Shown in pieces: positions 3,528 to 63,425 of a stretch of DNA of 64,000 bases. Position 1 is the stretch's first letter. Every line of letters starts with the position of its first letter. Both the position numbers and the translations under genes were made by a program. This stretch comes from Salinispira sp. Its GTDB lineage: Bacteria; Spirochaetota; Spirochaetia; DSM-27196; Salinispiraceae. The stretch covers positions 269,951 through 333,950 of the forward strand of contig CBDDDG010000001.1 of assembly GCA_965226555.1 (NCBI GenBank), written 5' to 3'. The notes beneath the pieces were generated by a model. The model saw only the letters and a program-made list of their open reading frames with translations. It was not told where the DNA came from and searched no databases.

Positions 3528-3551
3528 GAAAGTTTTGCTTGCAAAAATTTC
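3528..3551. repeat. Palindromic mini-element (minimal copy)
   Basis: GAAAGTTTTGCTTGCAAAAATTTC between convergent ORFs; CATGA repeated at 3523-3527 and 3551-3555. Confidence 0.7.
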
Positions 3552-3568
3552 ATGATTGGATAGCTTGC

Positions 3569-3859
3569 TCAAGGCAATGCCAATGGAGGTAAATTGTTAT
3601 TGAATTCATTGAGGATTGCTCCATCAACAGCTGTAATGAAACTATTGTTGTCTCCATTGATGATGTAGGTATTGCCAATCTTTATGTTGTTTTCAATGCT
3701 ATCAATATTTTTTTCGATAATAGCAATATTGCCGTTTATATTGCCAATATTATTTTTTACATTAGTAACATTAAGGTGAAGAGAAATGGTTAATGCTATG
3801 GACAATGTCAAAGTTAAACCAACTGTCACTCTCCCAACTATTTTTATTTTATCTGCCAT
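3569..3859 (-). CDS. Small hypothetical membrane protein
   Basis: ORF MADKIKIV... with one hydrophobic helix and an Asn/Ile-rich coil; no family recognised. Confidence 0.4.
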   Translation of the reverse strand: MADKIKIVGRVTVGLTLTLSIALTISLHLNVTNVKNNIGNINGNIAIIEKNIDSIENNIKIGNTYIINGDNNSFITAVDGAILNEFNNNLPPLALP

Positions 3860-3976
3860 AAAACAGCTCACTATTAATTTTGATCCATACGCCAATTCTC
3901 TGCGCGACAAACAACTACGGTGTCCTACACTATTTCCGATAATTATGATACAGTGAGAAAACCTATCGGAGGTGCC

Positions 3977-4459
3977 ATGGCAATAACATTATTTCATACT
4001 ACTGTCAGAATAACAAAAATCCTTGCAAAATGCAAAAGTTTCTTAACAGGAATTCTCGGTGTTTTTTTACTCTTTGCCTGCCAGACAGTCACGGAAGAGA
4101 TTCCCCCCGATCTCAATAAGCAGATATTCTTCAAGGATGCTCAGGAATTTATGGATTCTCTGAATTGGGATGCTGCCTTAATGTATCTGAATGAATTTAA
4201 ACGCCGCTTTCCCGATGATCGCGCCGATATACTTGCAGCCGATTATCAAATTGCCCTCATATATTATAAACAACAGGCCTATAATAGGGCACTGGAAGGT
4301 TTCAAGGCAATACTGGACATATACACTACCAACAATTCCGGCGATGAATCAGGCGAACTCTATGAATGGGTGAGAGTCCTCAGCGAAAAGCTCATTGAGC
4401 GGATAGAAAACCAGAGCGAATCGGAAGAAACAGAAGAGGCAGAAGAAACAAGCGGATAA
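3977..4459 (+). CDS. TPR/BamD-like lipoprotein
   Basis: GGAGGT RBS before ATG 3977; lipobox LLFAC; TPR-like helices (A.YQIA.IYYK..Y..AL..F..I). Confidence 0.7.
   Translation: MAITLFHTTVRITKILAKCKSFLTGILGVFLLFACQTVTEEIPPDLNKQIFFKDAQEFMDSLNWDAALMYLNEFKRRFPDDRADILAADYQIALIYYKQQAYNRALEGFKAILDIYTTNNSGDESGELYEWVRVLSEKLIERIENQSESEETEEAEETSG
4011..4048. repeat. Palindromic mini-element inserted in-frame in a signal peptide
   Basis: TAACA-aaaatccttgcaaaatgcaaaagtttct-TAACA; direct repeats exactly 33 bp apart. Confidence 0.6.
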
Positions 4460-4533
4460 TTGCGTCAGATGACTGGGTATAGAGGTACCATTATGAACAA
4501 AGATATTGTTGTAAACAGGGGAATATGAGAGAA

Positions 4534-4611
4534 TTTTTCTTATATTCACTATATCGCAGAAGGCGGGGAGGTGGTGCGCTTATGGGTGGATTCGCCATGG
4601 TTGAATTCGCC
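4534..4611 (-). mobile_element. Solo left end of an IS30-family element
   Basis: About 65 bp near-identical to 20074-20137 (IR plus promoter region of the IS30 remnant); IR tip duplicated in tandem. Confidence 0.7.
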
Positions 4612-4664
4612 CAGTTGATATTTCCGATATTGTGGTATATATTTTTATAGAGAGGAGCATTAAA

Positions 4665-6788
4665 ATGATGTATAATTTCAATCCACTACGGAAAGTGGGG
4701 GGCTCCTCCTCTGTGTTAGTTGTCATAAGTCTGGTTCTCGCAGCCGTACTTACCGGATGTCCTGAGCCAGTTCAGGGACCCAGTCCGGGACCCACGGTAA
4801 GCCCGCCGGGCACCATGGCTGCCCCAACCCTTGAAGTGGGGAATACTCAACTAAGGGCTAACTGGACTCCGCCGGAAAATAACGGCGGCAGCGCAATTAC
4901 CGCGTATGAACTTCGCCATAGCGATGACGGCGGGAGCAGCTGGTCGGGATTAGTCGAAATCCCCGCGCCAGCCACAAGCATTGCCATCACGAACCTGACA
5001 AACCTCACCGAATACATCGTACAGGCGCGCGCACGGAACAGCGCGGGCGCAGGCGACTGGTCGGGATCAAGCGATGGAGCAACCCCGAATTCAATAGTTC
5101 CCACGGAGCCGAATAATTTTATGCTTGCAGTGAGTCTGCAAACAATTACCGCAACATGGACTGTGCCGACCGATACTGGCGACAGTGCCATTACTCACTA
5201 TGAACTACAATATCGCGTAGTCGGAACACGCGCGTGGGAATCTGTCATTTCTATTACTGTGAATGCCGACCCCAACCACACCTACACCCACCCCATCCCC
5301 AACCTGACAAAAGGTACCGAGTACGAGGTGCAGGTCTACGCTGTCAATGGTCAGGGCAATGGTAACTCAGCGACTGGCACCGCAACCCCTATTGGGCCTC
5401 CTTACGCACCGAATGCTCCTACGCTCACAGGCGGAAACGCCCGAATCACCGCAACATGGACAGCGCCCGCTGACGGCGGCAGCACCATTACCGAATACCA
5501 TGTGCAGCACAGAACAAGCACCGCCGGCACATGGTCAACGACCGATACAGATAACATCGCCACTATTGACGCTGCTACCACAAGCCACCCCATTACCGGG
5601 CTGACAAGCAGTACCTACCAAGTACGGGTGCGCGCCGTCAACGCGCAAGGTAATGGCGACTGGTCGGTATCTGCCGCCCTAACCCTTCCTGTCAAACCCA
5701 GCGCGCCGAATGCTCCTACGCTCACAGGCGGAAACGCCCGAATCACCGCAACATGGACAGCGCCCGCTGACGGCGGCAGCGCCATTACCGCGTACCATGT
5801 GCAGCACAGAACAAGCGCCGCCGGCACATGGTCAACAACCGATACCGATAACATCGCCACTATTAATGACGGTACCACGAGCTCCACCATTACCGGGCTG
5901 ACAAACGGTACCTCCTACCAAGTACGGGTGCGCGCTGTCAACGCTATCGGCACTGGCGACTGGTCTACATCCGCAACGGGAACAACGAAAATTTCTGCGG
6001 CGCAGACTACTCCCGCGGGTACGGCAGCGACGGTAAACCTTTCGGCTGCCGCTATGACCATTATTACCGATGAGAACCCAAACCCAACCGTTGCTTTGAC
6101 CGTGGTGGAACCGGGCACTCTCGTGGTTAGTGCATCAGGAGACATTACGGTCACCGCCGCAACTGCGCCCGCAGAGGTTACCGTTCCGACAGTTGATTCG
6201 GGTACCGGAGTTGTTACGGTTGCTGCGGATACAACGGCAGGAACATATCTGGTATACGGCACTGAATCTGGAGGCACAGACATACTGTTTGCCGAATATT
6301 TCTCCGTTACCGTGAGTCCAACAACTAACGCTGAACTGGACACAGCGGTAGCTGCGGGAATATCAACCTGGGGCAATACTGCCAATCTCAACTACATTAT
6401 TACCACTGCAGTAACGGATATGACCAATGTTTTCCGGGGTACACTTGAAGCTTCAAACAGGTTCAATGGCGATATCTCGGGCTGGGATGTCAGTAAGGTA
6501 ACAACTATGCACTATATGTTCTATGGAGCAACCGTATTCAATGGCGATATCTCCGGCTGGGATGTCAGTAAGGTAACGAATATGAGCAATATGTTCAATG
6601 GAGCACGCGCATTCAATCAAGATCTTGAGGAGTGGAAGGATCATTGGTCGACTGCTGCAGGGACGCTCAATGCCGCTGGCAAATATACCAAAAACAAAAA
6701 CGAAATGTTTGTGGATTCCGGTTTGGATGCGAATCCGACTGTTGGGGATGATAGCGGGGATCAACCGAATTATCCATCATGGTATTAG
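4665..6788 (+). CDS. Surface lipoprotein: 4 fibronectin type III domains plus BspA/DUF285 repeats
   Basis: GAGGAG RBS; lipobox VLTGC; Fn3 motifs (W.AP..GGS.IT.Y...Y.V.VRAVN..G.G.WS); FNGDISGWDVSKVT.M..MF repeats. Confidence 0.88.
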   Translation: MMYNFNPLRKVGGSSSVLVVISLVLAAVLTGCPEPVQGPSPGPTVSPPGTMAAPTLEVGNTQLRANWTPPENNGGSAITAYELRHSDDGGSSWSGLVEIPAPATSIAITNLTNLTEYIVQARARNSAGAGDWSGSSDGATPNSIVPTEPNNFMLAVSLQTITATWTVPTDTGDSAITHYELQYRVVGTRAWESVISITVNADPNHTYTHPIPNLTKGTEYEVQVYAVNGQGNGNSATGTATPIGPPYAPNAPTLTGGNARITATWTAPADGGSTITEYHVQHRTSTAGTWSTTDTDNIATIDAATTSHPITGLTSSTYQVRVRAVNAQGNGDWSVSAALTLPVKPSAPNAPTLTGGNARITATWTAPADGGSAITAYHVQHRTSAAGTWSTTDTDNIATINDGTTSSTITGLTNGTSYQVRVRAVNAIGTGDWSTSATGTTKISAAQTTPAGTAATVNLSAAAMTIITDENPNPTVALTVVEPGTLVVSASGDITVTAATAPAEVTVPTVDSGTGVVTVAADTTAGTYLVYGTESGGTDILFAEYFSVTVSPTTNAELDTAVAAGISTWGNTANLNYIITTAVTDMTNVFRGTLEASNRFNGDISGWDVSKVTTMHYMFYGATVFNGDISGWDVSKVTNMSNMFNGARAFNQDLEEWKDHWSTAAGTLNAAGKYTKNKNEMFVDSGLDANPTVGDDSGDQPNYPSWY

Positions 6789-6793
6789 GAGCA

Positions 6794-6891
6794 GTTTCAT
6801 AGCCCGCAGCGGCTATTGAAACGCTGCAATTCAACTCAGGCAGGCGCGGATTTTCCCCCGGACGCATGGCGAGCAGGAGGCTTGCGCCTTC
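6794..6891 (+). repeat. Conserved structured 3' element (partial copy of 61566-61710)
   Basis: Near-identical to the sequence after the paralog ending at 61566; begins with hairpin GTTTCATAGCC/GGCTATTGAAAC. Confidence 0.75.
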
Positions 6892-6906
6892 TCCTCTATA
6901 CCCGCA

Positions 6907-7956
6907 TCATATCTCCATTTTCTCATCCAGAAATTCCTTCGGGGCTGCTTCAAAACTTTCTGCAAGAAATTCTTCTGCCTTCATTCCTGCCGGAATGCCT
7001 CTACTGAGTGACTGCTTCCATTTTCGGCTTCCCCGCTCGCCTGCAAACAATTCCAGTACTGGCCAGACAAGGCTCCTGACATTCACCCCTTCCTCTGCCT
7101 GCCGAAGGAGATAGCCAAACCAGGCCTCAATAATCTGCCTTCTGCTGGGCGCGCATAATTCATTGGTGTATCCGTTTGTCAGTTCTCCGTAATATCGGCG
7201 ATCCAGACTGGCAAGCTGCCAAGGGCGCTCATAGGCAATTCGTCCAAGCATAACCCCATCGCAATACTTCAGATGTTCATCAATTTCCTCATAGTTTCGT
7301 ATGCCGCCGTTTATTTCAATATGAAGATATGGATATTCCTCCTTGAGACGGTATACTTCCTCATAGCGGAGGGGGGGAATGTGCCGGTTTTCTTTCGGAC
7401 TGAGACCTTCCAGAATTGCGACACGGGCATGAATTATGTAACGCCGAGCCGGACCATCTTTGATGCGCTTTACGAAGGTGCTCATATCATCGTAGGTTCC
7501 GAGGCTGATATTTTGACCTTCAATACCAATACGATGCTTAATACTCACCGGCCGGCTCCCTGCCCTATGCATGACTTCGAGCACACGCGCAACCCGTTCA
7601 GGATCGGCCATGAGGCAGGCTCCAAAGTTATGCTGCTGTACCCGATCACTCGGGCATCCGACATTGAGGTTATACTCATCATAATCCCAGTCTTCGGCTA
7701 TTCGGATAGCTTCCGCCATTTCATCAGGATTATCTCCGCCAAGCTGAAGAACAAGCGGGCCTTCAACAGGATCAAAATCCAGAATGCGGGCACGATTTCC
7801 ATGAATAATTGCCGCGGGAGTAATCATTTCAGTGTAGAGCAGAACCTGCCTGCTGAGCTGCCGGAGAAACCAGCGAAAATGCCGATGCGTTTTATCCATC
7901 ATGGGAGCAATGGATATTGGAGAATGTATACTCGCCGCAGCATGACAATATTTCAT
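6907..7956 (-). CDS. dusA: tRNA dihydrouridine(20/20a) synthase
   Basis: APMMD.T.RHFR, LQLGG, NLNVGCPS.RVQ...FGACLM and IHAR.AIL.GLSPKENR.IPPL.Y motifs. Confidence 0.95.
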   Translation of the reverse strand: MKYCHAAASIHSPISIAPMMDKTHRHFRWFLRQLSRQVLLYTEMITPAAIIHGNRARILDFDPVEGPLVLQLGGDNPDEMAEAIRIAEDWDYDEYNLNVGCPSDRVQQHNFGACLMADPERVARVLEVMHRAGSRPVSIKHRIGIEGQNISLGTYDDMSTFVKRIKDGPARRYIIHARVAILEGLSPKENRHIPPLRYEEVYRLKEEYPYLHIEINGGIRNYEEIDEHLKYCDGVMLGRIAYERPWQLASLDRRYYGELTNGYTNELCAPSRRQIIEAWFGYLLRQAEEGVNVRSLVWPVLELFAGERGSRKWKQSLSRGIPAGMKAEEFLAESFEAAPKEFLDEKMEI

Positions 7957-9062: not shown

Positions 9063-9102
9063 ATGCGGGAACTCGCTGGATTCGCGGAACTCGCGGGAAC
9101 TC

Positions 9103-11251: not shown

Positions 11252-11305
11252 GTTTAACCCTTCCTACTTGCTGAATTATGAAAAACTTTACATTCTCATT
11301 TTATA

Positions 11306-11333
11306 GAAATGTTTTGCAAAATGCAAAACTTTG
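11306..11333. repeat. Palindromic mini-element with 5-bp TSD
   Basis: TTATA-gaaatgttttgcaaaatgcaaaactttg-TTATA. Confidence 0.8.
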
Positions 11334-11345
11334 TTATAATTCAGA

Positions 11346-19017: not shown

Positions 19018-19159
19018 TTTTCCTCTTCTTTATATATACCAGAAATTTTTGCTTTATGCAAAAGCTCAGGAGCAACAATTTTGTGCGCCTTCTTCCGATC
19101 CCGCACCTTCTCAACTGCGCTCTTTGCCATATCTACCTCCTCAGCCTTCCCTCGCTCAA

Positions 19160-19356: not shown

Positions 19357-19454
19357 CTTTTTATTACTGAAAATTTTGCTCTGCAAAATTTTCCGATGAG
19401 GATTCTCTCATCACAGAAAATTGTGCAGAGCACAATTTTCAGTAGCAAAACTTT
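19357..19454. repeat. Composite palindromic element
   Basis: GAAAATTTTGCTCTGCAAAATTTTC + GATGAGGATTCTCTCATC + GAAAATTGTGCAGAGCACAATTTTC + GCAAAACTTT; reverse-complement relative of 62917-63040. Confidence 0.8.
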
Positions 19455-19702
19455 ATATGTGTTCTCAGAAAAAAAGTGTTGCCCGAACCTTTATTCAAAG
19501 GCTCGGGCAGATGCTGAAAACAACCAATTTAACCGACCCTCGGAAACGACCGGTTGTTCATCTATCACAAATAATGGCTCTCATCATATCGATGATGGTG
19601 GGAACCAGTATGAAAGTGATGTTGAGCTAAGTGTGGTCTATGCGCCCGGTATTCCCGCCACATACTCCCTGCTCAAGGGCAAAATCTCCCTCCATTATTC
19701 TG

Positions 19703-20137
19703 TCAAAACCCCGTCAAAAAATTTGTTGGGGAAGTTCTGGGCGCTCGCTCATTCCTTTCTTGCCAACGATATCGGGGTTTTTCTTGCGATAGGCTCTCCG
19801 GTCGCAGCGTCTCTTCCGTTTCTTTCTCCGGGTCGGCAGCAGAACGCACCACTGACGATCGCTCCCGCGCCTTCCGCTGAGCCTGAATCGCCACATACCG
19901 CCCATGATCATTCCGGTTCAATTCGCGGTAAATGGTCGTATGGCAACACCCAATGACCCGGGCTATCTCCCTGACGGGATATCCTTTTCGTCGATAATAG
20001 GCAATATCCTCATCAATTATCCATATCCAACTGATTATACTGTCTGTGCACCTTTTTGTCCTCCTCGTAGTGGTTTTTTCTTATACTCACTATATCTCAG
20101 AGGGCGGGGAGGTGGTGCACTTATGGTTGAATTCGCC
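19703..20137 (-). mobile_element. IS30-family remnant (left IR plus frameshifted, internally deleted transposase)
   Basis: IR GGCGAATTCAACCATAAGTGCACCACC (20137-20111); GAGGAGG RBS, GTG 20051; HTH DIAYYRRKGYPVREIARVIGCCHTTIYRELNRN..Y.A.QAQRKA; then LPTRRKKRKRR...GMSERPE in another frame; no DDE domain. Confidence 0.85.
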
Positions 20138-20155
20138 TAGTTGTCCACAAGTTCA

Positions 20156-20203: not shown

Positions 20204-20287
20204 GCCCAGGTGGCGGAACTGGTAGACGCGCTAGATTCAGGTTCTAGTGGGGGCAACCCCGTGGAGGTTCAAGTCCTCTTCTGGGCA
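20204..20287 (+). tRNA. tRNA-Leu(CAG)
   Basis: Acceptor stem GCCCAGG/TCTGGGC, anticodon arm CTAGA-TTCAGGT-TCTAG, long variable arm, GGTTCAAGTCC T-arm; CCA not encoded. Confidence 0.96.
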
Positions 20288-20671: not shown

Positions 20672-20717
20672 GAGATGAGAGAATCCTCACTGGACAATTT
20701 TGCAGAGCAAAAATTTA
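20672..20717. repeat. Partial palindromic element
   Basis: GATGAGAGAATCCTCACTGGACAATTTTGCAGAGCAAAAATTT, similar to 62997-63040. Confidence 0.7.
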
Positions 20718-20718
20718 T

Positions 20719-20883
20719 CTAGGCTATTGCTGAAGGATTGCAGAGGTTTTTTTTATCTGCTGCTGATCGCGCGCAGTTGAGACAGACAAAATCCGGTTTT
20801 TTTACAATTATGAAAAGCTGATCCATATTGTTCTGGATATCTTCCGGTTTTAATTCACACAATGTCATTGCACTCAGGTCCAT
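20719..20883 (-). CDS. 54-aa four-cysteine small protein (not in the ORF track)
   Basis: AAGGAGG RBS; MDLSAMTLCELKPEDIQNNMDQLFIIVKKPDFVCLNCARSAADKKNLCNPSAIA; upstream TTGCTT-17-TATAAT promoter on the minus strand. Confidence 0.8.
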   Translation of the reverse strand: MDLSAMTLCELKPEDIQNNMDQLFIIVKKPDFVCLNCARSAADKKNLCNPSAIA

Positions 20884-21047: not shown

Positions 21048-21084
21048 GATAACTTTTGCATTTTGCAAAACTTTGTGTTAGTAT
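21048..21084 (+). promoter_or_regulatory. sod promoter overlapping a palindromic mini-element
   Basis: Element gataacttttgcattttgcaaaactttg (21048-21075) contains TTGCAT (21056-61), 17 bp from TAGTAT (21079-84). Confidence 0.55.
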
Positions 21085-27989: not shown

Positions 27990-28118
27990 TACAAAAGTTT
28001 CTAATAGAAATAATTACCCATAATTGAAAGAAATTACCAATAAAAATTGTTATAACTTCTTTATACTATGTGAAAGTTTTCCAAAACAAAAAATTTTCAC
28101 AGTATATGGAGATAGGTA

Positions 28119-34099: not shown

Positions 34100-37000
34100 A
34101 TGTGTTTCAAAAAATCCCATATTATACCAATTATTCTTGTACTGAGCGCAATTTTTATTGCATTGCTTGCCGGATGTCCAATACTGGATATCGATTCGGC
34201 GGCGGAGCCGGTGGCGGTCTCAACCCCTCCGGGCGAAATGGCTGCTCCCAGGCTTGTCCCGGGGGATGGGGAACTCACGGTTCACTGGACGGCGCCTGCC
34301 GATGACGGAGGCAGCCCCATTACCGGATATGAACTACAGTATCGCGAAGTTGCCGGACCGGCAGGAAACTGGATTCCTGAAGCGGACGATCCCGCTCTTA
34401 TTGTTGAAAGTACTGCGACAAGCCACACCATCACGGGCATGACAAACAGCACCGCGTACGAGGTGCGCGCACGCGCCGTGAACGTGATGGGGAAGGGCGA
34501 CTGGTCGGAACCGAGCGAAGGAGGAGCCCCTGTTGACAATCTTCCCATGCAGCCGACCGCGCTTGTGCTCACAGCAGGAGATACGAACATTACCGCAACA
34601 TGGACGGCGCCGACCGATGACGGCGGCAGCCCCATTACCGGATATGAACTACAGTATCGCGAAGTTGCCGACCCGGCGGGAAGCTGGCTGGATTCGAATA
34701 CGACAACGACCATTTCCCCCATTGCCGCGACACGCCACACCATTACGGGGCTGACAAACGGTACCGCGTACGAGGTGCAGGTGTACGCTGTCAATGTCAC
34801 GGGCGGTGGTACCCCGTCGGAAAGTGCCATAGCAACCCCCGCAACACCTCCTGTCGCGCCTGCTGCTCCCAGGCTTGTCCCGGGGAATGGGGAACTCACG
34901 GTTCACTGGACTTCTCCGAACAATGGCGGCAGCCCCATTACCGGGTATGAACTACAGTATCGCGAAGTTGCCAGCCCGGCGGGAAACTGGATTCCTGAAG
35001 CGGACGATCCCGCTATTATTGTTGAAAGTACTGCGACAAGCCACACCATCACGGACCTGAAAAACAGCACCGCGTACGAGGTGCGCGCACGCGCCGTGAA
35101 CGTGATGGGGAAGGGCGAATGGTCGGAACCGAGCGAAGGAGCATCCCCTGTTGGCAATCTTCCCATGCGGCCGACAGCGCTTGTGCTCACAGCAGGAGAT
35201 ACGCAGATTATCGCAGCATGGACGGCTCCGACCGATGACGGCGGCAGCCCTATTACCTATGAACTACAGTATCGCGAAGTTACCAGCCCGGCAGGAAGCT
35301 GGCTGGATTCGAATACGACAACGACCATTTCCTCCATTGCCGCGACAAGCCACACCATTACGGGCCTAACAAACGGTACCGCGTACGAGGTGCAGGTGTA
35401 CGCTGTCAATGTCACGGGCAATAGCACCCCGTCGGAAAGTGCCGCAGCAACCCCCGCAGCACCTCCTCCTGCGCCTGCTGCTCCGACAATTGAAATACGG
35501 AACACGGAACTTGTGGTTCATATATTCCAGTTGAGGATATCAAGCGATGATGGCGAGAGTGCGATCACTGCCTCTCACCTGCGTTATCGCGAGGGCAACA
35601 GCGGAGGCTGGACGGAGATTACCTCCGGCTTCACGAACATATGCAAGGATACGGTCGACGTAGTATGTAGTCATATAATTACCGGACTGACAAACGGCAA
35701 CAGCTATGAAGTACAGGTGCGCTTCGTGAATGCGATGGGTGTGGGCGCGTGGGGCGCATCGGCCACAGCAACCCCCGCAGCACCTCCTTCTGCGCCTGCT
35801 CCTCCCACGCTTGTCGCGGGTGATAGGCAGATTATTGCAACATGGACGGCGCCGACCGAGGACGGCGGCGACTCCATTACCGGGTATGAATTGTTATATT
35901 ATGATTCAAATAATACGTCTGATAGTAGCTTGATAGGGAGCATTGAGGGAATTACCGGCACAAGCCACACCATTACCGGATTGACAAACACCATTGCCTA
36001 CGGTGTAGTAGTGCTTGCCGTAAATAAGGGGGGCAATAGTCCGTGGTCAGCACCTGCTTTTGCAACTCCAGTCGGTCCTCCTTCTGCGCCTGTTCCTATG
36101 CTTGTCGCGGGGGGTGGGAAAATTACCGTAACATGGACGGAGCCGAACAATGGCGGCCGCCGCATTAGCTCGTATCATCTACAGTATAAGCCTAACTCTA
36201 CAAGCAGCTGGGGGAATACGATTGTAATTGGGAGCGCCTCCGCCACCTACGACATTACGGGACTGCGTGAGAGCACGAGGTATGATGTGCGGATGCGCGC
36301 ACGGAACGGTCTGGGTCTGGGTGATTGGTCACAAACTGTTTCGGAGAGTACATTCAGTCCTCCTTCTGCGCCTGCTGCTCCCAGTCTTGTTGCGGGGAAT
36401 GGGGAAATTACCGCAACATGGACGGCGCCGGCCAATGGCGGCACCCCCATTTTCTTGTATCAACTACAGTATAAGCTCTCGGAAAGTAACTGGATGAATG
36501 CTGCTCCTATTATTGAAATTCCAGCGCACAGGTTTCCCATCTACAAGATTACGGGACTGTATGAGGACACCAAGTATGATGTGCGGATTCTCGCACGGAA
36601 CGCTGCGGGTCTGAGTGATTGGTCAGAAGCTGCTTCGGCAACTACACTCCTCGGCAATGGCAATCCCAAGCTGCGAATGGTCGGGTATACCCCGTATCGT
36701 GATTTTGCGTATACTGATTCTACGGATATTACGAAATTTGCACTTGAAGATAATGTATTTGATTATCTGACAGATGCCATTCTTCTTGCTCATACGTATA
36801 TTGATATACTCACACCCGATTCTCAACCAGATGCGCTGGAGGAGTTTAAAGCAGCTGCCGCCGGAAAGAGAGCGCGGTTATGGTACTGCTCGGGGTCATC
36901 ACCCAGCGGCGGCGGACTGGGCAATATCATAAATAATCCAACAAAGCGGGCGGAAAACATCCGGAATGTAGTAGGGTTTATTGTTAATAACGGTTTTTAT

Positions 37001-38143
37001 GGTCTTGATATCGATTGGGAATATCCAGAAGCATATCAATGGTCTGCATATAATACCTATTTGACCGAGTTGAAAGCAGCATTGAATGCGGAGGGGAAAA
37101 AACTCTCAATTGCTACACTTTCTTGGAGTATAGGTTCTGCGCCTGCCTCAGTTGTCGATGCCGTTGATTATGTGAATATTATGGCATACGATACGAGGGG
37201 CCAGGATAGTTTTGGTGAATGGGGTCATGCTACATATGGTGATGCGGTAGATGAGATGAATGCATTCCTTAACAAAGGATTTGCGCGTGAGCAACTAAAC
37301 ATTGCGGTTGCCTTCTATGGACTCCATAGTAAAAAGAACGCCATAGAATTGCCCATGCCATGGTTTTATTTCTGGGATGGAGGTGGAGTAGCATATCGTG
37401 ACATGCGGACACTCTATCCTGATATACCTCCTTCTCAAGATCTTGTAGACGAATTTCATTTTAACAATATTGATCTGATCAAGAGAAAAGCAAATATGGC
37501 AATTAATGAAAATCTGGGAGGACTCATGATCTGGGAAATGGGTGCTGATCTTCCACTACAAGATCCTCGGTCACTTTTCAGGGCGATGGTTGAGATTGCG
37601 GAGCCTACCCGTACATTACCTTCTGCGAGTAAGGTATCTCTCCCCGTTGGCGGCGGATTGAACAGAGATATCTGGCTTGACATTACCGGCGACACCATTG
37701 CCGATTTAACGAATAATTCAAATTATCCTCATAATCCCGATTATCACACTTTTGTGTATGATTTTGTCGCTCCAAAAAATTGGAGAGATAATTACGGCCA
37801 AAGAATATATGGGTATATTACACCACAGGTAACAGGAACCTATACGTTCTGGATTGCTGCTGATAATCAGGCTGCACTGTATTTTGGTTCTTCTCCAAAT
37901 AGCACACAAAAAATTGCCTCCATTCCCGAGTCGGGAGGGACTAATGTAGAGCAATGGGATAAATATAGCTCACAGCAATCAGTGACCCAAAATTTAGTTG
38001 CCGGTACTCGGTATTACGTTGAAGTACTTCACAAGGCAGGCGGGGAAGGTGATCATGTCGCTGTTGCATGGCAAATTTCTGGTGGTGAAAGAAGGGTCAT
38101 AAGACAAAAATATTTAGAATTAAGCCAAGTTATAGCAAACTAA
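34100..38143 (+). CDS. Surface lipoprotein: 8 Fn3 domains, GH18 chitinase-like domain and PA14 domain
   Basis: Lipobox LLAGC; Fn3 repeats; GLDIDWEYP, DYVNIMAYD and LGGLMIWE (GH18); NYGQRIYGYI.P..TG.YTFWIA.D and Y.EVLHK.G.G.DH..VAW (PA14). Confidence 0.88.
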   Translation: MCFKKSHIIPIILVLSAIFIALLAGCPILDIDSAAEPVAVSTPPGEMAAPRLVPGDGELTVHWTAPADDGGSPITGYELQYREVAGPAGNWIPEADDPALIVESTATSHTITGMTNSTAYEVRARAVNVMGKGDWSEPSEGGAPVDNLPMQPTALVLTAGDTNITATWTAPTDDGGSPITGYELQYREVADPAGSWLDSNTTTTISPIAATRHTITGLTNGTAYEVQVYAVNVTGGGTPSESAIATPATPPVAPAAPRLVPGNGELTVHWTSPNNGGSPITGYELQYREVASPAGNWIPEADDPAIIVESTATSHTITDLKNSTAYEVRARAVNVMGKGEWSEPSEGASPVGNLPMRPTALVLTAGDTQIIAAWTAPTDDGGSPITYELQYREVTSPAGSWLDSNTTTTISSIAATSHTITGLTNGTAYEVQVYAVNVTGNSTPSESAAATPAAPPPAPAAPTIEIRNTELVVHIFQLRISSDDGESAITASHLRYREGNSGGWTEITSGFTNICKDTVDVVCSHIITGLTNGNSYEVQVRFVNAMGVGAWGASATATPAAPPSAPAPPTLVAGDRQIIATWTAPTEDGGDSITGYELLYYDSNNTSDSSLIGSIEGITGTSHTITGLTNTIAYGVVVLAVNKGGNSPWSAPAFATPVGPPSAPVPMLVAGGGKITVTWTEPNNGGRRISSYHLQYKPNSTSSWGNTIVIGSASATYDITGLRESTRYDVRMRARNGLGLGDWSQTVSESTFSPPSAPAAPSLVAGNGEITATWTAPANGGTPIFLYQLQYKLSESNWMNAAPIIEIPAHRFPIYKITGLYEDTKYDVRILARNAAGLSDWSEAASATTLLGNGNPKLRMVGYTPYRDFAYTDSTDITKFALEDNVFDYLTDAILLAHTYIDILTPDSQPDALEEFKAAAAGKRARLWYCSGSSPSGGGLGNIINNPTKRAENIRNVVGFIVNNGFYGLDIDWEYPEAYQWSAYNTYLTELKAALNAEGKKLSIATLSWSIGSAPASVVDAVDYVNIMAYDTRGQDSFGEWGHATYGDAVDEMNAFLNKGFAREQLNIAVAFYGLHSKKNAIELPMPWFYFWDGGGVAYRDMRTLYPDIPPSQDLVDEFHFNNIDLIKRKANMAINENLGGLMIWEMGADLPLQDPRSLFRAMVEIAEPTRTLPSASKVSLPVGGGLNRDIWLDITGDTIADLTNNSNYPHNPDYHTFVYDFVAPKNWRDNYGQRIYGYITPQVTGTYTFWIAADNQAALYFGSSPNSTQKIASIPESGGTNVEQWDKYSSQQSVTQNLVAGTRYYVEVLHKAGGEGDHVAVAWQISGGERRVIRQKYLELSQVIAN

Positions 38144-41142: not shown

Positions 41143-41197
41143 GAAAGTTTTGCTACTGAAAGTTTTTCTCTGCAAAATTTTCCTATGCAAAAGTTTC
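41143..41197. repeat. Nested palindromic element with perfect 5-bp TSD
   Basis: TTGAT-gaaagttttgctactgaaagtttttctctgcaaaattttcctatgcaaaagtttc-TTGAT in the divergent intergenic region. Confidence 0.85.
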
Positions 41198-55667: not shown

Positions 55668-55711
55668 AAAAATCATCATTACATACTAAAGTTGTAGGCG
55701 TAGAGGTGACT

Positions 55712-56038
55712 ATGGATAATGAAATGGAACTTTCAGAAACCAATTTTCATTCTGAGGTACTCAAATCGAAAATACCGGTCCTTGTAGACTTCTGGGCTGA
55801 GTGGTGTATGCCCTGCCGTATGGTTTCTCCTGTTATTGATGCGCTTGCGATAAAGTATGGGGAGAAGATTAAAGTGAGAAAATTGAATGTTGACGAGCAC
55901 AATAAACTTGCCGTGAAATATGGTATAACCAGTATTCCGGCGCTTATCATATTCAAAAAAGGCAAAATATTCAAACGGCATATAGGGGTTGCGTCCAAGA
56001 AAGTTCTGGATTCCTTCATTACTGAGTCGCTGCAATAG
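55712..56038 (+). CDS. trxA: Thioredoxin
   Basis: VLVDFWAEWCMPC and YGI.SIP motifs. Confidence 0.92.
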   Translation: MDNEMELSETNFHSEVLKSKIPVLVDFWAEWCMPCRMVSPVIDALAIKYGEKIKVRKLNVDEHNKLAVKYGITSIPALIIFKKGKIFKRHIGVASKKVLDSFITESLQ

Positions 56039-56098
56039 CCATGGGAAATACGACGTTGCAATAAAAATGCGACGCTGCAATAAACATGAGAACATCAT

Positions 56099-57175: not shown

Positions 57176-57305
57176 ATCTTCCTCCTGAAAGCAAGACGGA
57201 GAAAATATCAATGGCGCATGAGATATCATGTAAATTTTGTAAAAAAAGTGACAAAGTTTTGCAAAATCCTCTGTTTCTACTATAATGAAGGGACAGGAAA
57301 GTGTT

Positions 57306-57860: not shown

Positions 57861-58975
57861 AGATATGTATTGTAAAATTGGGAATGTCCGCGCTCCTCAT
57901 TATACTTCCTCCCGCCGTTCTTCAGGGACAGAACCTCGGCATTTCCACTGCGGACCTGCGCATAGAGCAAAGTATTGAAGGCGGATATTATCTCTATCTC
58001 CGCCAGAAAGATGGGGTAGGATCAGTTCTGCTTACCGAATCGACCGAGGACCCGCAGCGGCAGGTAGCAAGCTATGCGCTGCGAAACCCTGAATATCATC
58101 CTGAGAACAGTAAGGAACTCCGCATTCTGAACGATGAGCTTATTGAAAGCAATGGGCTGTATTTTCTTATTGATTCCACACCACTACCAGATGCGCAGTT
58201 TGGGCGGGCCTTTCGGATATTCATTCCGTATCTTGTTCTCTTTGGATATGAATGGAGCCGTTACGGTGAATTGCAGGTTCTTGATGGAACATATCTCAAC
58301 ATCCGTACCTTTGAGCTGCCCTATGCGGATTACCGCGGCGCATTTCAGGATAATCCCTTTATTATCCGAGTGACCCAGCGACCCTCCGCCGGTCCGCCCG
58401 AGGGTAATTTTATGACAGAAACGGTGGAACGTTTTTCCGAAATTGCCGAAGTTACTGCGGGTAAGGTGCTCTATTCCAGCGGTGAGGAAGACATTCTCCC
58501 CAGAATAGCAGACATTCTGTCTGGGGAACGGGGAAATGAACTTGATCTCGTGTTGGTCATTGACAGTACGCAATCCATGAAAAACGATATGGCAGTTCTC
58601 AGAACGCATCTGGCCCGAACCGTGGCTGAGAACAGCCGGAATTTTAATACCATTCGTGTGGGCGCCGTATATTATCGCGATTATCTGGAAGAATATCTCT
58701 ACCGAATTCATGAATTTGCCCCGGGCACAGAGCATCTTGACGATCTGCTGAACCGCATTCAACCTGCGGGCGGGCGCGACATTCCCGAAGCAGTGAACGA
58801 GGCCCTCCATGCCGCCCTCACTGAGTTTGATTGGCGCGCCGAAAACCGAAAAATTATTCTCATTGGCGATGCTCCTCCGCATCCGCGTCCCCGCGGGAGT
58901 GTTACCGCGGAAATAGTTGAGCAGGAAGCCGCAGCCCGCAATGTCGCTGTGCACGTCATTATACTTCCGCATTAA
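57857..58975 (+). CDS. von Willebrand factor A domain protein
   Basis: DLVLVIDSTQSM, GG.D.PEAV and IILIGDAPPH motifs. Confidence 0.85.
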   Translation: MKICIVKLGMSALLIILPPAVLQGQNLGISTADLRIEQSIEGGYYLYLRQKDGVGSVLLTESTEDPQRQVASYALRNPEYHPENSKELRILNDELIESNGLYFLIDSTPLPDAQFGRAFRIFIPYLVLFGYEWSRYGELQVLDGTYLNIRTFELPYADYRGAFQDNPFIIRVTQRPSAGPPEGNFMTETVERFSEIAEVTAGKVLYSSGEEDILPRIADILSGERGNELDLVLVIDSTQSMKNDMAVLRTHLARTVAENSRNFNTIRVGAVYYRDYLEEYLYRIHEFAPGTEHLDDLLNRIQPAGGRDIPEAVNEALHAALTEFDWRAENRKIILIGDAPPHPRPRGSVTAEIVEQEAAARNVAVHVIILPH

Positions 58976-59276
58976 ACACGGCGCGCATGCAAAATGCAAA
59001 AGATATTTCATAATATGACAAAGTTTTGTCTGCGGTTGCGGCATAACAACAGGATAGCTGTGCCCGCGGTACTGCTGCCGGAAATGAGGGGAATACTGAA
59101 AAAAGATGAAAAAAAGAATGAATTTTAGGGTTTTGAGTATGCAAAGGGTGGAAAATGATGTATTCTGAATACTAGGAACCGATGAATAATTTTTTCTGCG
59201 TGGAAAAAAGACTGCCGGCAGATATAATGGAGTTATTCAAAGGTTTTTAATACTTATTTTAGCATGAGGTAAAATT

Positions 59277-61566
59277 ATGCGAACTACGTTATTGAAAAGT
59301 GGGGGGGGGGGTAACCCTCTTCCTCCTATGTGCAATGTTCATTGCGTTGCTTGTCGGATGTCCAATGCCGGAACCGGAACCAATGCCGGAACCAGTGCCC
59401 ATGGACATGGATACATCTCCCCTAATAGGCGTGTGGACCGCGGATAATGAGTTTCATACCATAGAATTCACCGCGACAACGTTCATAGACCGTGTTTCGG
59501 GTTTGACGTGTGATTACACGGATAACGGAAACTCAATTACGCTCAGTAATTGTATGGGATTCGAAGGAGCGGAAAACCGTAATGGGGCAACGGTAGAGTA
59601 TACCATTGATGGAGATACCTTAACATTGGATGGCACTGCCTATACCCGGCAGAATTCAGATGTACCTGAACCAACCGTGCCGGGCACCATGGACGCCCCA
59701 AGCCTTGAAGCGGGGAATGCTCAACTAACGGTTAACTGGACTCCGCCGGAAGAAACCGGCGATAGTGAAATTACCGCGTATGAACTTCGCCATAGCGATG
59801 ATGGCGGGAGCAGCTGGTCGGAGGACATTACTACAGCCGACGCGCCAGCCCTACGCGCTGACATCACGGGACTGATAAACGGCACCACATACGTCGTACA
59901 GGTGCGCGCACGGAACAGCGCGGGCGCAGGAAACTGGTCGGAATCGAGCGCAGAAGCAACACCTATTGGCGTTTCCCTCGCGCCGAATGGGCTCATGCTT
60001 GCAGTGAGTATGCAAACAATTACCGCAACATGGACTGCGCCGACCGATACTGGCGACAGCCCCATTATTCGCTATGAACTGCAACATCACGAAGTTGGAG
60101 CAAGCGAGTGGGAAGCTACTGTTTCCATTCCTGTGAATGCCGACCCCAACCACACCTACACCCACCCCATCACGGAACTGACAAACGGCATCGAGTACGA
60201 TGTGCGGGTCTACGCTGTCAATACAGAGGGCAATGGTAACCCAGCGACTGGCACCGCAACCCCTATTGGGCCTCCTGCCATGCCGAATGCTCCCACGCTC
60301 ACAGTTGGAGACACCCAGCTCACCGCAACATGGACAGCGCCTAACAACGGCGGCAGCCCCATTACCGGGTATGATGTGCAGTATAGTTCAGACAGCGGAA
60401 GCACTTGGACGCCGGCCTCGGGCAACCCTATCAGTGGTACGAGCTACACCATCCCGAACCTGACGAACGACGGTACCTCCTACGATGTACAGGTACGCGC
60501 CCGCAACACGCTGGGCGATAGCGACTGGTCATTATCCGCAACGAGAACATTGCTGCCGCTTGCGGCACGGGTTCCCTTTGGTACATCAACAACATCCGTC
60601 ATTCTTTCGGCTGATATTGATGACGCCGCTGCCAATGCGGAGAATCCAAGCGTTACTGTGGCTGGGGTTACTTCCGGGACATCGGTTACCCCTCCGACAG
60701 TTGACTCAAGTACCGGAGTTATTACGGTTACCGCAACGACAACGGCAGGAACATACAATGTATCTGTCATAGACGGAACCGATGAGAATACACGGGTTAC
60801 CGAAAAGTTTTATGTTACCGTGAGGCCTCAAGATGAAGATAATAAGTATGCCGATGATGCTGGTAGTGATGCCGCAGAAATTCTTGCCGATCTGAAATTG
60901 AAGGTAAATACGGGGATATCAACCTGGGGCAATACTGCCGATCTCAACTACATTATTACCACGGCAGTAACGAAGATGGTCGATATTTTCAACTTCAGCG
61001 AATTCAATGGCGACATCTCACGCTGGGATGTCAGTTCGGTAACGAATATGAACCAGATGTTCAATGCAGCAAGTGAATTCAATGGCGATATTTCGGAATG
61101 GGATGTCAGCAAGGTAACAAATATGTCCTATATGATCGCTGGAGCAACCAGTTTCAATCGGGATATCTCCGGCTGGGATGTCCGCTCGGTAACGAGTATG
61201 TTCGGTATGTTCACTTCAGCAACTAGTTTCAATCACGATATCTCGGGATGGGATGTCAGTAAGGTAACGAATATGTCCTATATGTTCAGTGGAGCAACCA
61301 GTTTCAATCGGGATATCTCGAGATGGGATGTCAGTAAGGTAACGAATATGTCCTATATGTTTGGTGGAGCAAGCGCATTCAATGTCGATCTTAACGACTG
61401 GGCAGTGGATGCGGATGATAACAACTTGACCACTGGCAGCTGGAACAATGGCAGATATACCGGAACCAAAACAAGTATGTTTGCGGGTTCTGGCTTAGAT
61501 TCGGGTGATACAACGGATCCGGAGACTACTGTGACCCAACCGAATTATCCATCATGGTATTGGTAG
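59277..61566 (+). CDS. Surface lipoprotein: lipocalin-like domain, 3 Fn3 and BspA/DUF285 repeats; frameshifted at a G11 tract as assembled
   Basis: GAGGT RBS and ATG 59277 are out of frame with the main ORF (59299-61566) unless the G tract is 10 or 13; lipobox LLVGC; C-terminus QPNYPSWY shared with 4665-6788. Confidence 0.85.
59301..59311 (+). repeat. Poly-G (G11) tract in signal-peptide coding region
   Basis: AAAAGT-GGGGGGGGGGG-TAACC. Confidence 0.9.
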
Positions 61567-61710
61567 TTTCATAGCCCGCAGGAGCTATTGAAAAATGGCA
61601 ATTCAACTCAGGCAGGCGCGGATTTTCCCCGGACGCATGGCGAGCAGGAGGCGCAAGCCTCCGACCAGCCCCGTGCCTGCCTTTTTTCGATTGCTCGCCC
61701 ATGCGACGGG
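61566..61710 (+). repeat. Conserved structured 3' element (full copy)
   Basis: Shared with 6794-6891; several long complementary segments. Confidence 0.75.
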
Positions 61711-61722
61711 ATCAGGCTAATA

Positions 61723-61847
61723 GAAACTTTTGCATAAAGCAAAAGTTTCCGATCTGGAATGCTTTCTTTGTGCTTAGCATTCTCCTATTTTATAGAAGTT
61801 TTGCTACTGGAAATTGTGCAAGCACAATTTTCCAATGCAAAACTTTG
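61723..61847. mobile_element. Composite palindromic element (125 bp) with TAATA TSD
   Basis: TAATA-gaaacttttgc...gcaaaactttg-TAATA; homologous to 62296-62421 and 63299-63425. Confidence 0.88.
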
Positions 61848-62080
61848 TAATATCCCAAAATAATAGAAACTTTTTGAAAAAATTTCTCATTGTATCATTC
61901 ACCGTTCATATTTACCCCATCTATATAGTATGGGGAAAGATTATATCGATATGGTACACGCTGGAAATATGCTTTCAAGAATGTTCAGATATTCCGGGAT
62001 TTCATCCATTCATACTTCAACAAAAACCTCGCGCTGAGCATTGTTCCCGGGAGCGTGCGTCAATACACCCTATAATACAG

Positions 62081-62106
62081 GGCGAATTCAACCATACGCT
62101 CACCCC
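62081..62106 (+). mobile_element. Solo IS30-like inverted repeat
   Basis: GGCGAATTCAACCATA identical to the IR tip at 20137-20122. Confidence 0.6.
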
Positions 62107-62295
62107 ATTCCTGCCCACTCATCCCTCCTTCCCCCATCCCCGAAAAAAATTCACACATTTTGCAAAATTCTTTCAAAAAACATAGTTAAAAATGACTTTT
62201 TACCCGTCACATATATAGAGGGGAGAATTCACCATGGGACCATGTCGCCATGGGAGCTCCCCTATTCAGAAAGAAACGTTCAGAAAAAACATTCA

Positions 62296-62421
62296 GAAAC
62301 TTTTGCATTGGAAAATTGTGCTTGCACAATTTCCAGTAGCAAAAGTTTCAGATTCGGAATGCTTTGTATGTGCTTAGCATTCTTCTATTTTATAGAAAGT
62401 TTTGCATTTTGCAAAACTTTC
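62296..62421. mobile_element. Composite palindromic element (126 bp)
   Basis: Flanked by ATTCA/GTTCA; reverse-complement homologue of 63299-63425; ends 5 bp before the AGGAGG RBS of the Rpn gene. Confidence 0.88.
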
Positions 62422-62916
62422 GTTCAGGAGGATTGTATGATCGATTTCAAAGAAAAACCCGCCCCCATTCCCTACGACCAAGGCTACCGCTCTCTGCTGT
62501 TCCAACCCGCAATAATGCTCCAATTTCTGCAACGCTTTGTTGGAGGCAGATGGACGAAAAAATTGCGAATCGAGGATATAACCATTGAAAACGGTACCTT
62601 TTTCATTGACCATGCGAAAACACGAATGGCCGACATCGTCTGCAAAATCAGAAGTCGGGATCACACGGGAGATGTTGCTATCTATGTGCTCCTTGAGCAT
62701 CAGTCTGGAGTGGACAAAGACATGCCCCTCCGCATGTCAGAGTACACGAATTTGCTCTATCGGAACATTCACCGCTCCGGCGCAATTCCCGATGACTGCG
62801 AGTTGATATTTCTGCCCATTGTGTTCTATAATGGCACTCGAAAATGGAAGGTGCCGGGGAATGTCAGAGCGCAGAACACGCGGGAATTCCCGCAGTATCT
62901 TGCTCCCTTTCCCTAA

Positions 62917-63040
62917 CAAAGTTTTGCCTTGGAAAATTGTGCAAGCACAATTTTCCAAGGCAAAACTTTCTATATCTTGAAAGAATCAAATATATAGATG
63001 GGAGAATCCTTATTGGAAAATTTTGCGGAGCAAAATTTTC
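62917..63040. mobile_element. Composite palindromic element inside the Rpn gene
   Basis: Nested hairpin caaagttttgccttggaaaattgtgcaagcacaattttccaaggcaaaactttc, spacer, then gaaaattttgcggagcaaaattttc. Confidence 0.85.
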
Positions 63041-63298
63041 GGTACGATCTTATTAACGAGAACGATTATTCTGCGGAGCAGCTGCAGCATCGGGGAAGAA
63101 TGTTTGCGGCTGTTATGTACCTTGATCTATACTCAAAAAATCTGCTGAATACGGATTGGGACATTCAGAAGGTGGAGAAAGCGATAGCAGAAATGCTCAA
63201 TGAGGAATCGCTGGAGCTGATAGAGGAATTTATCGGCGTGGTAGATTCTATGTTCGGAATAGTTATAGATTTAGACACGTTAATGAACAGATTAGAAA

Positions 63299-63425
63299 CA
63301 AAGTTTTGCCAGAGGCAAAACTTTCTATAAAATTGGAGAATGCTATGTACATAGAAAGCATCCTCGATCTGAAACTTTTGCTACTGGAAATTGTGCTCTG
63401 CACAATTTTCCAATGCAAAAGTTTC
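63299..63425. mobile_element. Composite palindromic element inside the Rpn gene, AGAAA TSD
   Basis: AGAAA-caaagttttgc...gcaaaagtttc-AGAAA. Confidence 0.9.

Follow-up and report, generated by a model that had tools for sequence, protein, structure and literature searches.

Palindromic copies and a broken Rpn gene in the 64-kb window

The DNA analysed here, a stretch of 64,000 nucleotides from the genome of Salinispira sp. (the window), is dotted with short palindromic elements. A sequence-only reading had listed twelve copies and four half copies; all of them exist where they were placed, although several are more degenerate than the idealised hairpins H1, H2 and H3 from which they were said to be built. 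The copies at 3528, 41143, 61723, 62296, 62917, 63299 and 19369-19455 are close to the consensus, while those at 4016, 11306, 19042, 20672, 21049 and 28072 are degenerate. The features are listed below, with a strand where one is assigned.

3528..3551: 24-bp short unit, directly 3' of the stop codon of an ankyrin-repeat gene; 4-bp duplication
4016..4042: degenerate 27-bp unit; TAACA 5-mer only if the right end is shifted by one base; the related strain spans the site without a gap
11306..11333: 28-bp unit that lies upstream of ORF 11346 and has a perfect TTATA duplication; the related strain has it too
19042..19068: degenerate unit of 27 bp that lacks a duplication, upstream of a minus-strand 2-oxoacid dehydrogenase E2 gene
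19369..19455: rearranged long hairpin (H3, spacer hairpin, H2 and outer arm) within a mosaic region that is itself multi-copy; no duplication
20672..20720: degenerate fragment, second (B-type) spacer plus H3
21049..21075, plus strand: degenerate 27-bp unit and predicted promoter, 33 bp upstream of an Fe/Mn superoxide dismutase gene
28072..28098: 27-bp unit, strongly degenerate, that lies upstream of an ABC permease gene
41143..41197: 55-bp unit with a perfect TTGAT duplication and unique flanks
57252..57262, plus strand: lone arm with a -10-like box downstream
59019..59247, plus strand: MITE arm fused to the final ~220 bp of the partner IS5 (solo right end), no duplication
61723..61847: 125-bp A-type composite (27 + spacer + 54) with a perfect TAATA duplication
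61866..61886: degenerate half copy, belonging to the repeated Rpn flank
62296..62421: A-type composite of 126 bp (54 + spacer + 27) within the 5' leader of the Rpn gene
62437..63798, plus strand: Rpn/YhgA (PF04754) gene, interrupted twice by inserted elements
62917..63040: B-type composite of 124 bp without a clean duplication; it ends the Rpn frame at codon 159
63299..63425: 127-bp A-type composite (27 + spacer + 54) with a perfect AGAAA duplication
63466..63798, plus strand: small frame inside the Rpn gene that has a ribosome-binding site of its own and 4-residue repeats, intact despite both insertions

Distinct 5-mers had been reported to flank individual copies. They are perfect at four of the twelve (11306, 41143, 61723 and 63299) and not at the other eight: the 5-mer at 62296 has one mismatch, its paralogs being perfect, and inspection of the flanks found no duplication at 19042, 19357, 20672, 21048 or 62917.

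The copies at 62296, 62917 and 63299 all sit in or around one broken Rpn gene, a point overlooked in the earlier reading. This gene is one of 48 near-identical copies, and it is a target of the elements rather than a part of them; its small internal frame is likely to encode the RpnS antitoxin. The paralogs of the 61723 site are either empty or hold 54-, 55- or 126-bp forms, those of the 62296 site are empty (with one GTTCA) or hold 54-, 126- or 153-bp forms, and the 63299 site has 16 paralogous empty sites, each with one 5-mer. Also overlooked was that the half copy near 58990 adjoins the right end of the partner IS; this solo IS5 end lies upstream of an fn3/DUF285 gene. Rfam gave no match in window positions 58500-64000, only two sub-threshold miRNA hits.

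Abundance, build and target duplications

The palindromes are real, gene-less mobile elements found at about 500 places in the Salinispira sp. genome. Their arms form ~490 loci (491 counted), amounting to 1.3% of the genome, and a genome-wide count shows its three commonest 11-mers to be element arms. Each element holds at least four arm copies, with an 11-bp arm at either end providing terminal inverted repeats, and the loop is 5 nt long in 161 of 166 arm pairs genome-wide. Lengths peak at 27, 54 and 125-127 bp across the genome, in good agreement with the size classes first read from the window (~24-28, 55 and 124-127 bp), and further classes occur at 98, 153 and 168 bp. The main classes span 27-169 bp and have no coding capacity. 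The elements are mainly intergenic: just 78 of 577 clusters fall inside ORF proxies, in a genome with a coding share of 86%.

The composites (98, 126, 153 and 168 bp) share a plan in which two units, each of 27 or 54 bp, surround a 45-bp spacer. On folding, the 54-mer forms a single long imperfect hairpin, and the composites are strongly hairpin-forming (z = -7 to -11). Every one of the 24 unique A-type composites has one C-type and one G-type outer end, and their internal H1 is G/G in 34 of 34 cases. The placement of H2 in the right unit at 61723 and in the left unit at 62296, as had been claimed, is genuine. The further claim that loops occur in both orientations holds for the 2-nt loop, which flips relative to fixed arms (34 versus 24), but not for the 3-nt loop, seen in one orientation only (n = 26) and judged absent in flipped form from the 30 commonest loop classes.

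Of 179 unique sites genome-wide, 56 are flanked by an exact 5-bp duplication, where shuffles give 2.1; the other 123 lack a perfect one. For elements with unique flanks the exact 5-mer is found at 53 of 147, against 1.6 in 300 shuffles (maximum 7), so that the flanking 5-mers noticed in the window are well beyond chance. Only k = 5 stands out in this set (k = 4, 6 versus 1.1; k = 6, 2 versus 0), and the targets show a T-nnn-A bias. The duplication rate peaks in A-type composites (16 of 24 unique copies); perfect duplications are carried by 13 of 43 unique 27-mers, 16 of 55 unique 54-mers and none of 8 B-type composites.

Empty sites tell the same story. In 16 of 23 paralogous empty sites the gap is exactly one 5-mer, and the 27-mer at C6:2470 has an empty paralog. 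A related strain, only ~2% different around the site, lacks the 27-mer at G000:C10:458632, which has a perfect duplication here: 32 bases are missing at the joint, where 5 letters can be assigned to either side, and the missing bases are the 27-mer and exactly 5 bp (read from sequencing runs X4 and X5 of one study). Reads of that strain did not bridge a second 27-mer, at C10:459078. Duplications, empty paralogs and the related strain together bear out the proposal of a non-autonomous mobile family that duplicates 5 bp of target. The proposal that the elements insert into their own loops is not supported, with no direct 5-mer around the inner hairpin in any of 177 54-bp units (scored in one register) or of 20 inner-only copies.

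A probable IS5-family partner and a proposed origin of the short forms

It had been suggested that an autonomous IS with matching termini be sought, and one was found: a resident IS5-family element of 1,340 bp. Of 12 bases, its ends share 11 with the C-type arm (all 12 at one solo right end); with the G-type arm there are up to 3 mismatches in 11 bases, the terminal base among them. The homology is confined to ~12 terminal bases, the interiors being unrelated by inspection. Seven of its eight two-ended copies carry perfect 5-bp duplications, six of these being T-nnn-A, and it is the sole one of seven measured IS families to make 5-bp duplications (six others, 0 at k = 5). The element is intact, its copies are 99-100% identical to one another, and the frame is open in seven of them, with identical DDE-region motifs. 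Its transposase, P0001, scores 228.3 bits against NF033581 (cut-off 140), has DDE_Tnp_1 and DUF772 domains and is 46% identical to ISAba23 (over 91%); the best protein matches outside the Salinispira sp. genome are ~50%. A relative of P0001, 32% identical and with different ends, was found in 1 of 98 genomes of the order. Copies of the ISAba23 type share the terminal motif, and one of the two plasmid copies read has a 5-bp duplication.

The other IS families were rejected as partners. The ends of the IS481-like, IS30, IS1182, IS3 and IS982 elements, of a second IS5 and of one unclassified element are unlike the arms; the duplications of these other elements are 3, 4, 4, 6-7 and 9 bp, with the IS481-like one unresolved and the second IS5 outside the measured set. 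One further IS end pair had no two-ended copy.

From the similarity of ends, duplication and target, P0001 is likely to move the palindromic elements in trans. Our preferred explanation, which we consider probable, is that these are type II MITEs sharing termini, 5-bp duplication and T-nnn-A bias with the 1,340-bp IS5, that its DDE transposase moves them, and that the 27-bp and many of the 54-bp forms are collapse products. The copies are insertions that duplicate 5 bp. The two outer arms of the composites (98, 126, 153 and 168 bp), each 11-12 bp long, would be the sites at which the IS5 transposase works in trans. Once inserted, a composite folds into hairpins and contains direct repeats, namely its arms, and we propose that slippage or template switching could therefore delete the interior, flip loops and homogenise arms, leaving 54- or 27-bp stumps within the original duplication. 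Finally, some 27-bp copies may become promoters and be kept.

Collapse in place is suggested by five groups of sites that differ in size between the same flanks (27 versus 128/129, 27 versus 54 and 54 versus 125/126 bp), although gene conversion between paralogs could explain the 27 versus 129 variants, which are of B type and lack a duplication. Among 16 duplication-bearing 27-mers, 11 are C/G hybrids, 10 equal the predicted collapse product and 2 equal the internal H1. A minimal mobile unit of ~28 bp, as first inferred, is therefore doubtful: duplication-bearing 27-mers carry the two outer ends of composites rather than the H1 module from inside them, and size varies at the same site. The polarity of 54-mers is non-discriminating, as both hybrid polarities occur among 10 duplication-bearing copies (4 versus 2). 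At C10:458632, a perfect duplication and absence from so similar a strain weigh against collapse, since insertion and collapse would then both need to be recent.

This last case bears on a rival that we regard as unlikely, in which the same enzyme acts but the 27- and 54-bp units transpose alone, as two abutting ends without looping or as an extruded hairpin. It would account for the perfect duplications of the short units, for the 27-mer that is absent, leaving a single 5-mer, from the close strain and for the empty paralog at C6:2470, and a DDE enzyme does excise Paramecium IESs of 26-30 bp, according to PMC3464196. However, the 27-mers do not form a single lineage but show the same variety of ends and loops as the composites, sizes differ in place, and composites have the higher duplication rate. 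The same paper reports a minimum of 64-70 bp for bacterial cut-and-paste elements. A hybrid 27-mer born once by collapse and mobile thereafter would leave much the same picture. That a bacterial DDE enzyme transposes the 27-bp palindrome itself (two abutting IS5 ends plus five bases), far below the 64-70 bp looping limit, and that the palindrome seeds sigma-70 promoters in which the TA of its own duplication starts the -10 box, is rather unlikely.

Distinctly unlikely is a mover that is related to the resident IS5 but lost, or missing from the assembly, and that has ends nearer to the G-type arm. The mismatches of that arm and the limit of the homology to 12 terminal bases fit such a relative, as do an assembly that is 93.5% complete and the degenerate copies at 4016 and 11306, which are older than the split from the related strain. 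Yet the resident IS is intact, has nearly identical copies and duplicates like targets, MITE arms are joined to IS right ends (59019 in the window), and a protein search of the genome found no closer element.

That the hugely expanded Rpn/YhgA nucleases make the insertions is very unlikely. The genome has 140 PF04754 matches, and of the 577 clusters 221 have an Rpn locus within 500 bp, against 21% of random non-ORF positions, a proximity inflated because the paralogs were co-amplified. We reject Rpn as the transposase: the elements break Rpn genes and do not bound them, arm pairs more than 300 bp apart have no excess of duplications (9 of 1,003, ~8 expected), and Zhong et al. (PMC10400941) report neither inverted repeats nor duplications at rpn genes. 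The same count of distant pairs rules against element-bounded gene cargo, as in a composite transposon.

Spread of REP/BIME- or PATE-like elements by an HUH (Y1) enzyme acting on single-stranded hairpins is extremely improbable, despite the strong hairpins of the composites and their modular mosaics. HUH elements are not known to duplicate targets; the elements here do, which largely refutes the mechanism, and B-type composites alone have duplications at 0 of 8. The REP/BIME and RAYT lead of the sequence-only reading also failed in the protein search, with no Y1_Tnp match in the 93.5% complete genome and a control positive in 6 of 14 genomes.

Known relatives and promoter geometry

The H1 pattern has 246 matches in the Salinispira sp. 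genome and none in 7 genomes of the family, nor did a reversed control match. DNA matches to the elements were absent from 30 genomes, and one metagenome scan and one viral scan gave 0. A scan of a genome collection returned at least 18 scattered single matches, none with a 5-bp duplication by eye among the matches listed. Among the papers listed by literature searches there was no description of the MITE family; the MITE lists in the supplements of PMC11602168 could include it.

The resident IS is of the IS5/NF033581 type, whose nearest named member is ISAba23 (Acinetobacter and Moraxella plasmids), by terminal motif, 5-bp duplication and DDE_Tnp_1 plus DUF772; IS1106 of Neisseria is presumably a relative. 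In contrast to such elements the palindromes encode nothing, and have only ~12 terminal bases in common with the resident IS. The type II MITEs (Correia/nemis, QMITE2, MITEAba12, YPAL/RU-2), as described in PMC10969869 and PMC3184786, are likewise short, AT-rich, intergenic and hairpin-forming; they resemble an IS only at the termini, lose their duplications as they age, have truncated REP-like derivatives and provide promoters. The duplication-bearing 27-bp forms are shorter than the 50-500 bp that the review gives. No sequence matches were found to these MITEs, and the family here differs in its two self-complete palindromic units (27 or 54 bp) around a spacer.

Bacillus cereus bcr1 has a fixed target, whereas the target here varies with a T-nnn-A bias and a candidate transposase is identified. 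The likeness to bcr1, by description and not by sequence, lies in size (~155 bp), multi-hairpin fold (a cruciform in bcr1), 5-bp direct repeats at the flanks and strain-variable sites, going by PMC3184786. REP/BIME-RAYT systems and IS200/IS605 PATEs are also modular hairpin mosaics at hundreds of intergenic sites, but the present family is AT-rich, duplicates 5 bp and has no Y1 enzyme detected in its genome. Paramecium internal eliminated sequences (26-30 bp peak) are very short DNA with transposon-like ends and set a DDE precedent at ~27 bp; being eukaryotic, developmentally excised and TA-bounded, they serve as an analogy only.

As read here, the palindromes are a so far undescribed IS5-type MITE family and, as selfish DNA, of an ordinary kind. 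The family is unusually well resolved in one genome, with a partner enzyme, a target rule, empty sites and a size series in place, and its 27, 54, 98 and 126 bp forms with the same ends offer a clean test of the shortest DDE substrate.

Some old copies sit at promoter positions. That the palindromes are immobile DNA serving the host as operators or terminators is barely credible: these positions and the scarcity of clusters inside ORFs would suit it, but empty sites, broken genes and the lack of matches in 7 family genomes refute it for the family. Individual old copies may still have a regulatory role. In the 27-bp unit a -35-like hexamer precedes the TA of the unit's own duplication by 17 bp, and we therefore propose that some copies could become promoters. 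With this geometry the shortest form may offer a way in which selfish DNA turns into host promoters, for instance that of the superoxide dismutase gene, upstream of which the unit at 21049..21075 has a -35-like hexamer 17 bp before a -10-like box. Across the genome, -10 boxes at promoter spacing are enriched at the ends of 27-bp units (42 of 157 versus 30 of 221).

Abundance and anatomy of the elements

The palindromic elements are real and mobile, and form what appears to be an undescribed family of the type II MITE kind. They work like type II MITEs and show every membership feature of that class that could be tested. No published description was found in the literature searched, with ISfinder outside that search. 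MITE-rich genomes are known among spirochaetes (PMC11602168), and a hairpin element of 155 bp that has 5-bp repeats is on record as bcr1 (PMC3184786).

The three commonest 11-mers of the assembly (2.98 Mb, 26 contigs, 93.5% complete; window at G000:C1:269951-333950) are all arms of these elements.

Reference copies of the arms in the window
3528-3538, G-type outer arm, 372 genome occurrences
62296-62306, C-type outer arm, 423 genome occurrences
62311-62321, H2 arm, 395 genome occurrences

Genome-wide, these arms group into 577 clusters of at least two, and the merged element loci number 491, with a total of 37,949 bp. A pattern search for H1 gave 246 matches in this genome and none in seven genomes of the same family, and a 74-bp query matched 0 of 30 relatives. 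On re-reading the window, every copy listed by the sequence-only reading was found, several being more degenerate than its idealised H1, H2 and H3 hairpins. Two clostridial assemblies each carry two similar 27-bp hairpins in shared flanks, without duplication (L059, L066, L069 and L071); these are probably unrelated.

The main composite consists of a unit, a spacer hairpin of about 45 bp and a second unit, each unit being 27 or 54 bp long, and when folded a composite shows three hairpins (z = -7 to -11). The 29 matches to A-type composites, named for their spacer class, represent 24 unique sites. In all of these (24/24) one outer end is C-type and the other G-type.

Unit order in A-type composites
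54+27, 18 of 24 unique sites, duplication in 11
27+54, 3 of 24, duplication in 3
27+27, 2 of 24, duplication in 2
54+54, 1 of 24, duplication in 0

Because the 27+54 and 54+27 orders both occur, H2 lies to the right at 61723 and to the left at 62296, which accounts for a difference remarked on earlier. The proposal that elements insert into their own loops fared less well: none of 177 inner hairpins has a flanking duplication, so these are not nested insertions. The 168-bp composite is a form with an added GC-rich module. A separate GC-rich REP-like module (window 61630-61705, C10:562234, C19:23759) is found in the flanks of Rpn genes and as cargo of 168-bp composites. Neighbouring copies stand tail to head, 5 bp apart, at six of nine such junctions, and at C10:562234-562576 169-bp composites run head to tail with the same 5-mer between each. 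Flipped loops and homogenised arms are seen among copies, and fit the template switching that quasi-palindromes can undergo.

Target duplications and empty sites

We regard it as nearly certain that the elements are insertions with a 5-bp duplication. Of the 147 elements that have unique flanks and an outer arm at either end, 53 carry an exact flanking 5-mer, against 1.6 in shuffles. Across lengths of 1 to 10 bp nothing else stands out in this set except a small 4-bp class (6 against 1.1) and two cases at 6 bp. With a second element definition the count is 56 of 179 unique sites, against 2.1 shuffled.

5-bp duplications by element class (second definition)
A-spacer composites, 19/40
Composites with extra GC-rich cargo, 4/5
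54-mers, 16/55
27-mers, 13/43
B-spacer composites, 0/8
Mixed AB/ABR composites, 1/4
Other elements, 3/24

The target is biased towards T-nnn-A (29 of the 53 duplications). The bias extends to elements without matching 5-mers (32%, against 7% further out), as expected if flanks have been exchanged between insertions or have decayed.

Empty sites were surveyed in 209 site groups in multi-copy genes, 23 of which include an empty paralog. The gap is exactly one 5-mer in 16 of these, 6 bp in four, and 4, 7 and 8 bp in one each. One site group with two A-type copies has flanks that do not match, its net gain being the element and 4 bp. For the insertion at window 63299 there are 16 empty paralogs, each with one 5-mer. 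Furthermore, a 27-mer at C10:458632 is absent from a strain that is about 2% different. The joint comes from two sequencing runs of one other study, each with a single contig at a depth of 4-5, and its flanks measure 114 and 196 letters. It skips 32 bases, with 5 letters that fit either side. This absence may reflect loss by precise excision rather than a site that was never occupied. No gap of this kind appears in the related strain across two degenerate copies, those at 4016 and 11306, so these are older. The duplications, the empty paralogs and the C10 joint bear out the original suggestion of a mobile family with 5-bp target duplications.

The probable partner IS5 element and the likely origin of 27-mers

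The multi-copy genes of the genome include IS481-like, IS30, IS1182, IS3, IS982 and two IS5 elements. The enzyme of one resident IS5 very probably moves the MITEs, judging by how alike the two are in their ends, in the length of the duplication and in target bias.

Partner IS5 element, 1,340 bp; transposase P0001, 349 aa; nearest intact copy at C1:59249, outside the window

Eleven of 12 bases at the ends of this element agree with the C-type arm. The genome holds 10 of its left ends and 18 of its right ends, and one right end matches 12/12. Perfect 5-bp duplications flank seven of eight two-ended copies, and none were found in six other IS families measured in the genome. Seven copies keep an open transposase frame. 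P0001 scores above the NF033581 cut-off and is 46% identical to ISAba23, which has the same terminal motif in both plasmid copies read and a 5-bp duplication at one. An autonomous IS with matching termini, as the sequence-only reading envisaged, is thus resident; its HUH/RAYT lead came to nothing, with no Y1 transposase found in this 93.5% complete assembly.

At window 59019-59247 a MITE arm is joined to the right end of the IS5 element. Further solo right ends lie at C1:218537, C2:84388, C12:84695, C18:18320, C23:24670 and C26:21607. Such ends contain a TATAAT box and sit directly before gene starts, in the window case that of an fn3/DUF285 surface-protein gene, and were possibly co-opted as promoters. 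A 1,250-bp IS481-like element (family of C21:247592) has about 17-20 copies and falls below the NCBIfam cut-off. A multi-copy fragment matching the IS30 left end (window 19860-20140) lies directly upstream of tRNA-Leu(CAG) at 20204-20287.

Different sizes occupy one and the same site (27 and 129, 27 and 128, 27 and 54, 54/55 and 125/126, 54 and 126 bp). These variants are paralogs, to which conversion could contribute. We think it likely that most 27-mers arose by collapse, in which longer composites would shrink in place to 27-bp stumps. Perfect duplications flank 16 of 42 free unique 27-mers. The ends of these 16 are C/G hybrids in 11, G/T in two, C/C in one and G/G in two; the internal H1 of composites is G/G in all 34 unique cases. 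Ten of the 16 are the product predicted for a deletion between the two right-hand composite arms, and two correspond to an internal H1. A 9-bp microhomology that can be read off the sequence accounts for the commonest collapse product. Among the 10 duplication-bearing 54-mers put to the same test both hybrid polarities occur, 4 against 2, which does not tell the readings apart. The hybrid ends and deletion products make a minimal mobile unit of about 28 bp, as first proposed, doubtful. That a 27-mer moves by itself has a precedent in IESs of 26-30 bp on which a DDE enzyme acts, but is unlikely given an in vivo minimum of 64-70 bp for bacterial cut-and-paste elements (both Arnaiz et al., PMC3464196).

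Promoter geometry and Rpn genes

The 27-bp unit has a -35-like hexamer at positions 8-13, so that after a 17-bp spacer a -10 box would start at flank base 4, where the target rule favours TA. With internal and duplicate ends removed, 157 ends remain for 27-bp units and 221 for 54-bp units. TAnnnT begins at this base in 42 of the former and 30 of the latter (p = 0.002), and 5/6 matches to TATAAT number 22 against 9 (p = 0.0009). By crude gene calls, 27-bp ends with the box face a gene start more often (16/41 against 24/115, p = 0.036), and 54-bp ends show no such effect (p = 0.67). The signal is kept in copies with 2-3 mismatches (19/72) and fades with more (4/32, 1/40, 2/87), which suggests that copies that made promoters were retained. 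On this sequence evidence we lean slightly towards a promoter role for a subset of elements; promoters borne by MITEs are already known (PMC10969869).

Three window copies lie in or around one Rpn gene, itself one of 48 near-identical copies, 31 of which have frames of at least 326 residues.

62437-63798 (+), Rpn/YhgA gene, PF04754
63466-63798, internal small frame of this gene

The long nuclease frame is truncated by a MITE in at least nine of the 48 copies (six at residue 254, three at residue 159, including window 62917 and 63299). These insertions lie upstream of where the small internal protein begins, a pattern that would fit if losing the toxin while keeping the antitoxin were tolerated or favoured. 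There are 140 PF04754 matches in the genome, an extreme expansion, and two near-identical Rpn/YhgA families, one with about 48 copies and the other with up to 68, in which the number of a 4-residue repeat varies and leaders are mosaic; PMC10400941 gives 26 copies as a high example. Rpn proteins are described as nucleases (Kingston et al., PMC5350276; Zhong et al., PMC10400941), and by the latter authors also as unlikely transposases, and we treat the genes as targets amplified along with their insertions. The idea that elements bound Rpn genes was rejected, as they break them instead, and so was gene cargo between distant arm pairs, where shared duplications occur only at chance level.

DUF285 repeats are the genome's next commonest 11-mers after the element arms. 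Large fn3, DUF285 and ankyrin protein families with swapped modules, of a kind often found in host-associated bacteria, lie at window 4632-6788, 34100-38143 and 59299-61566.
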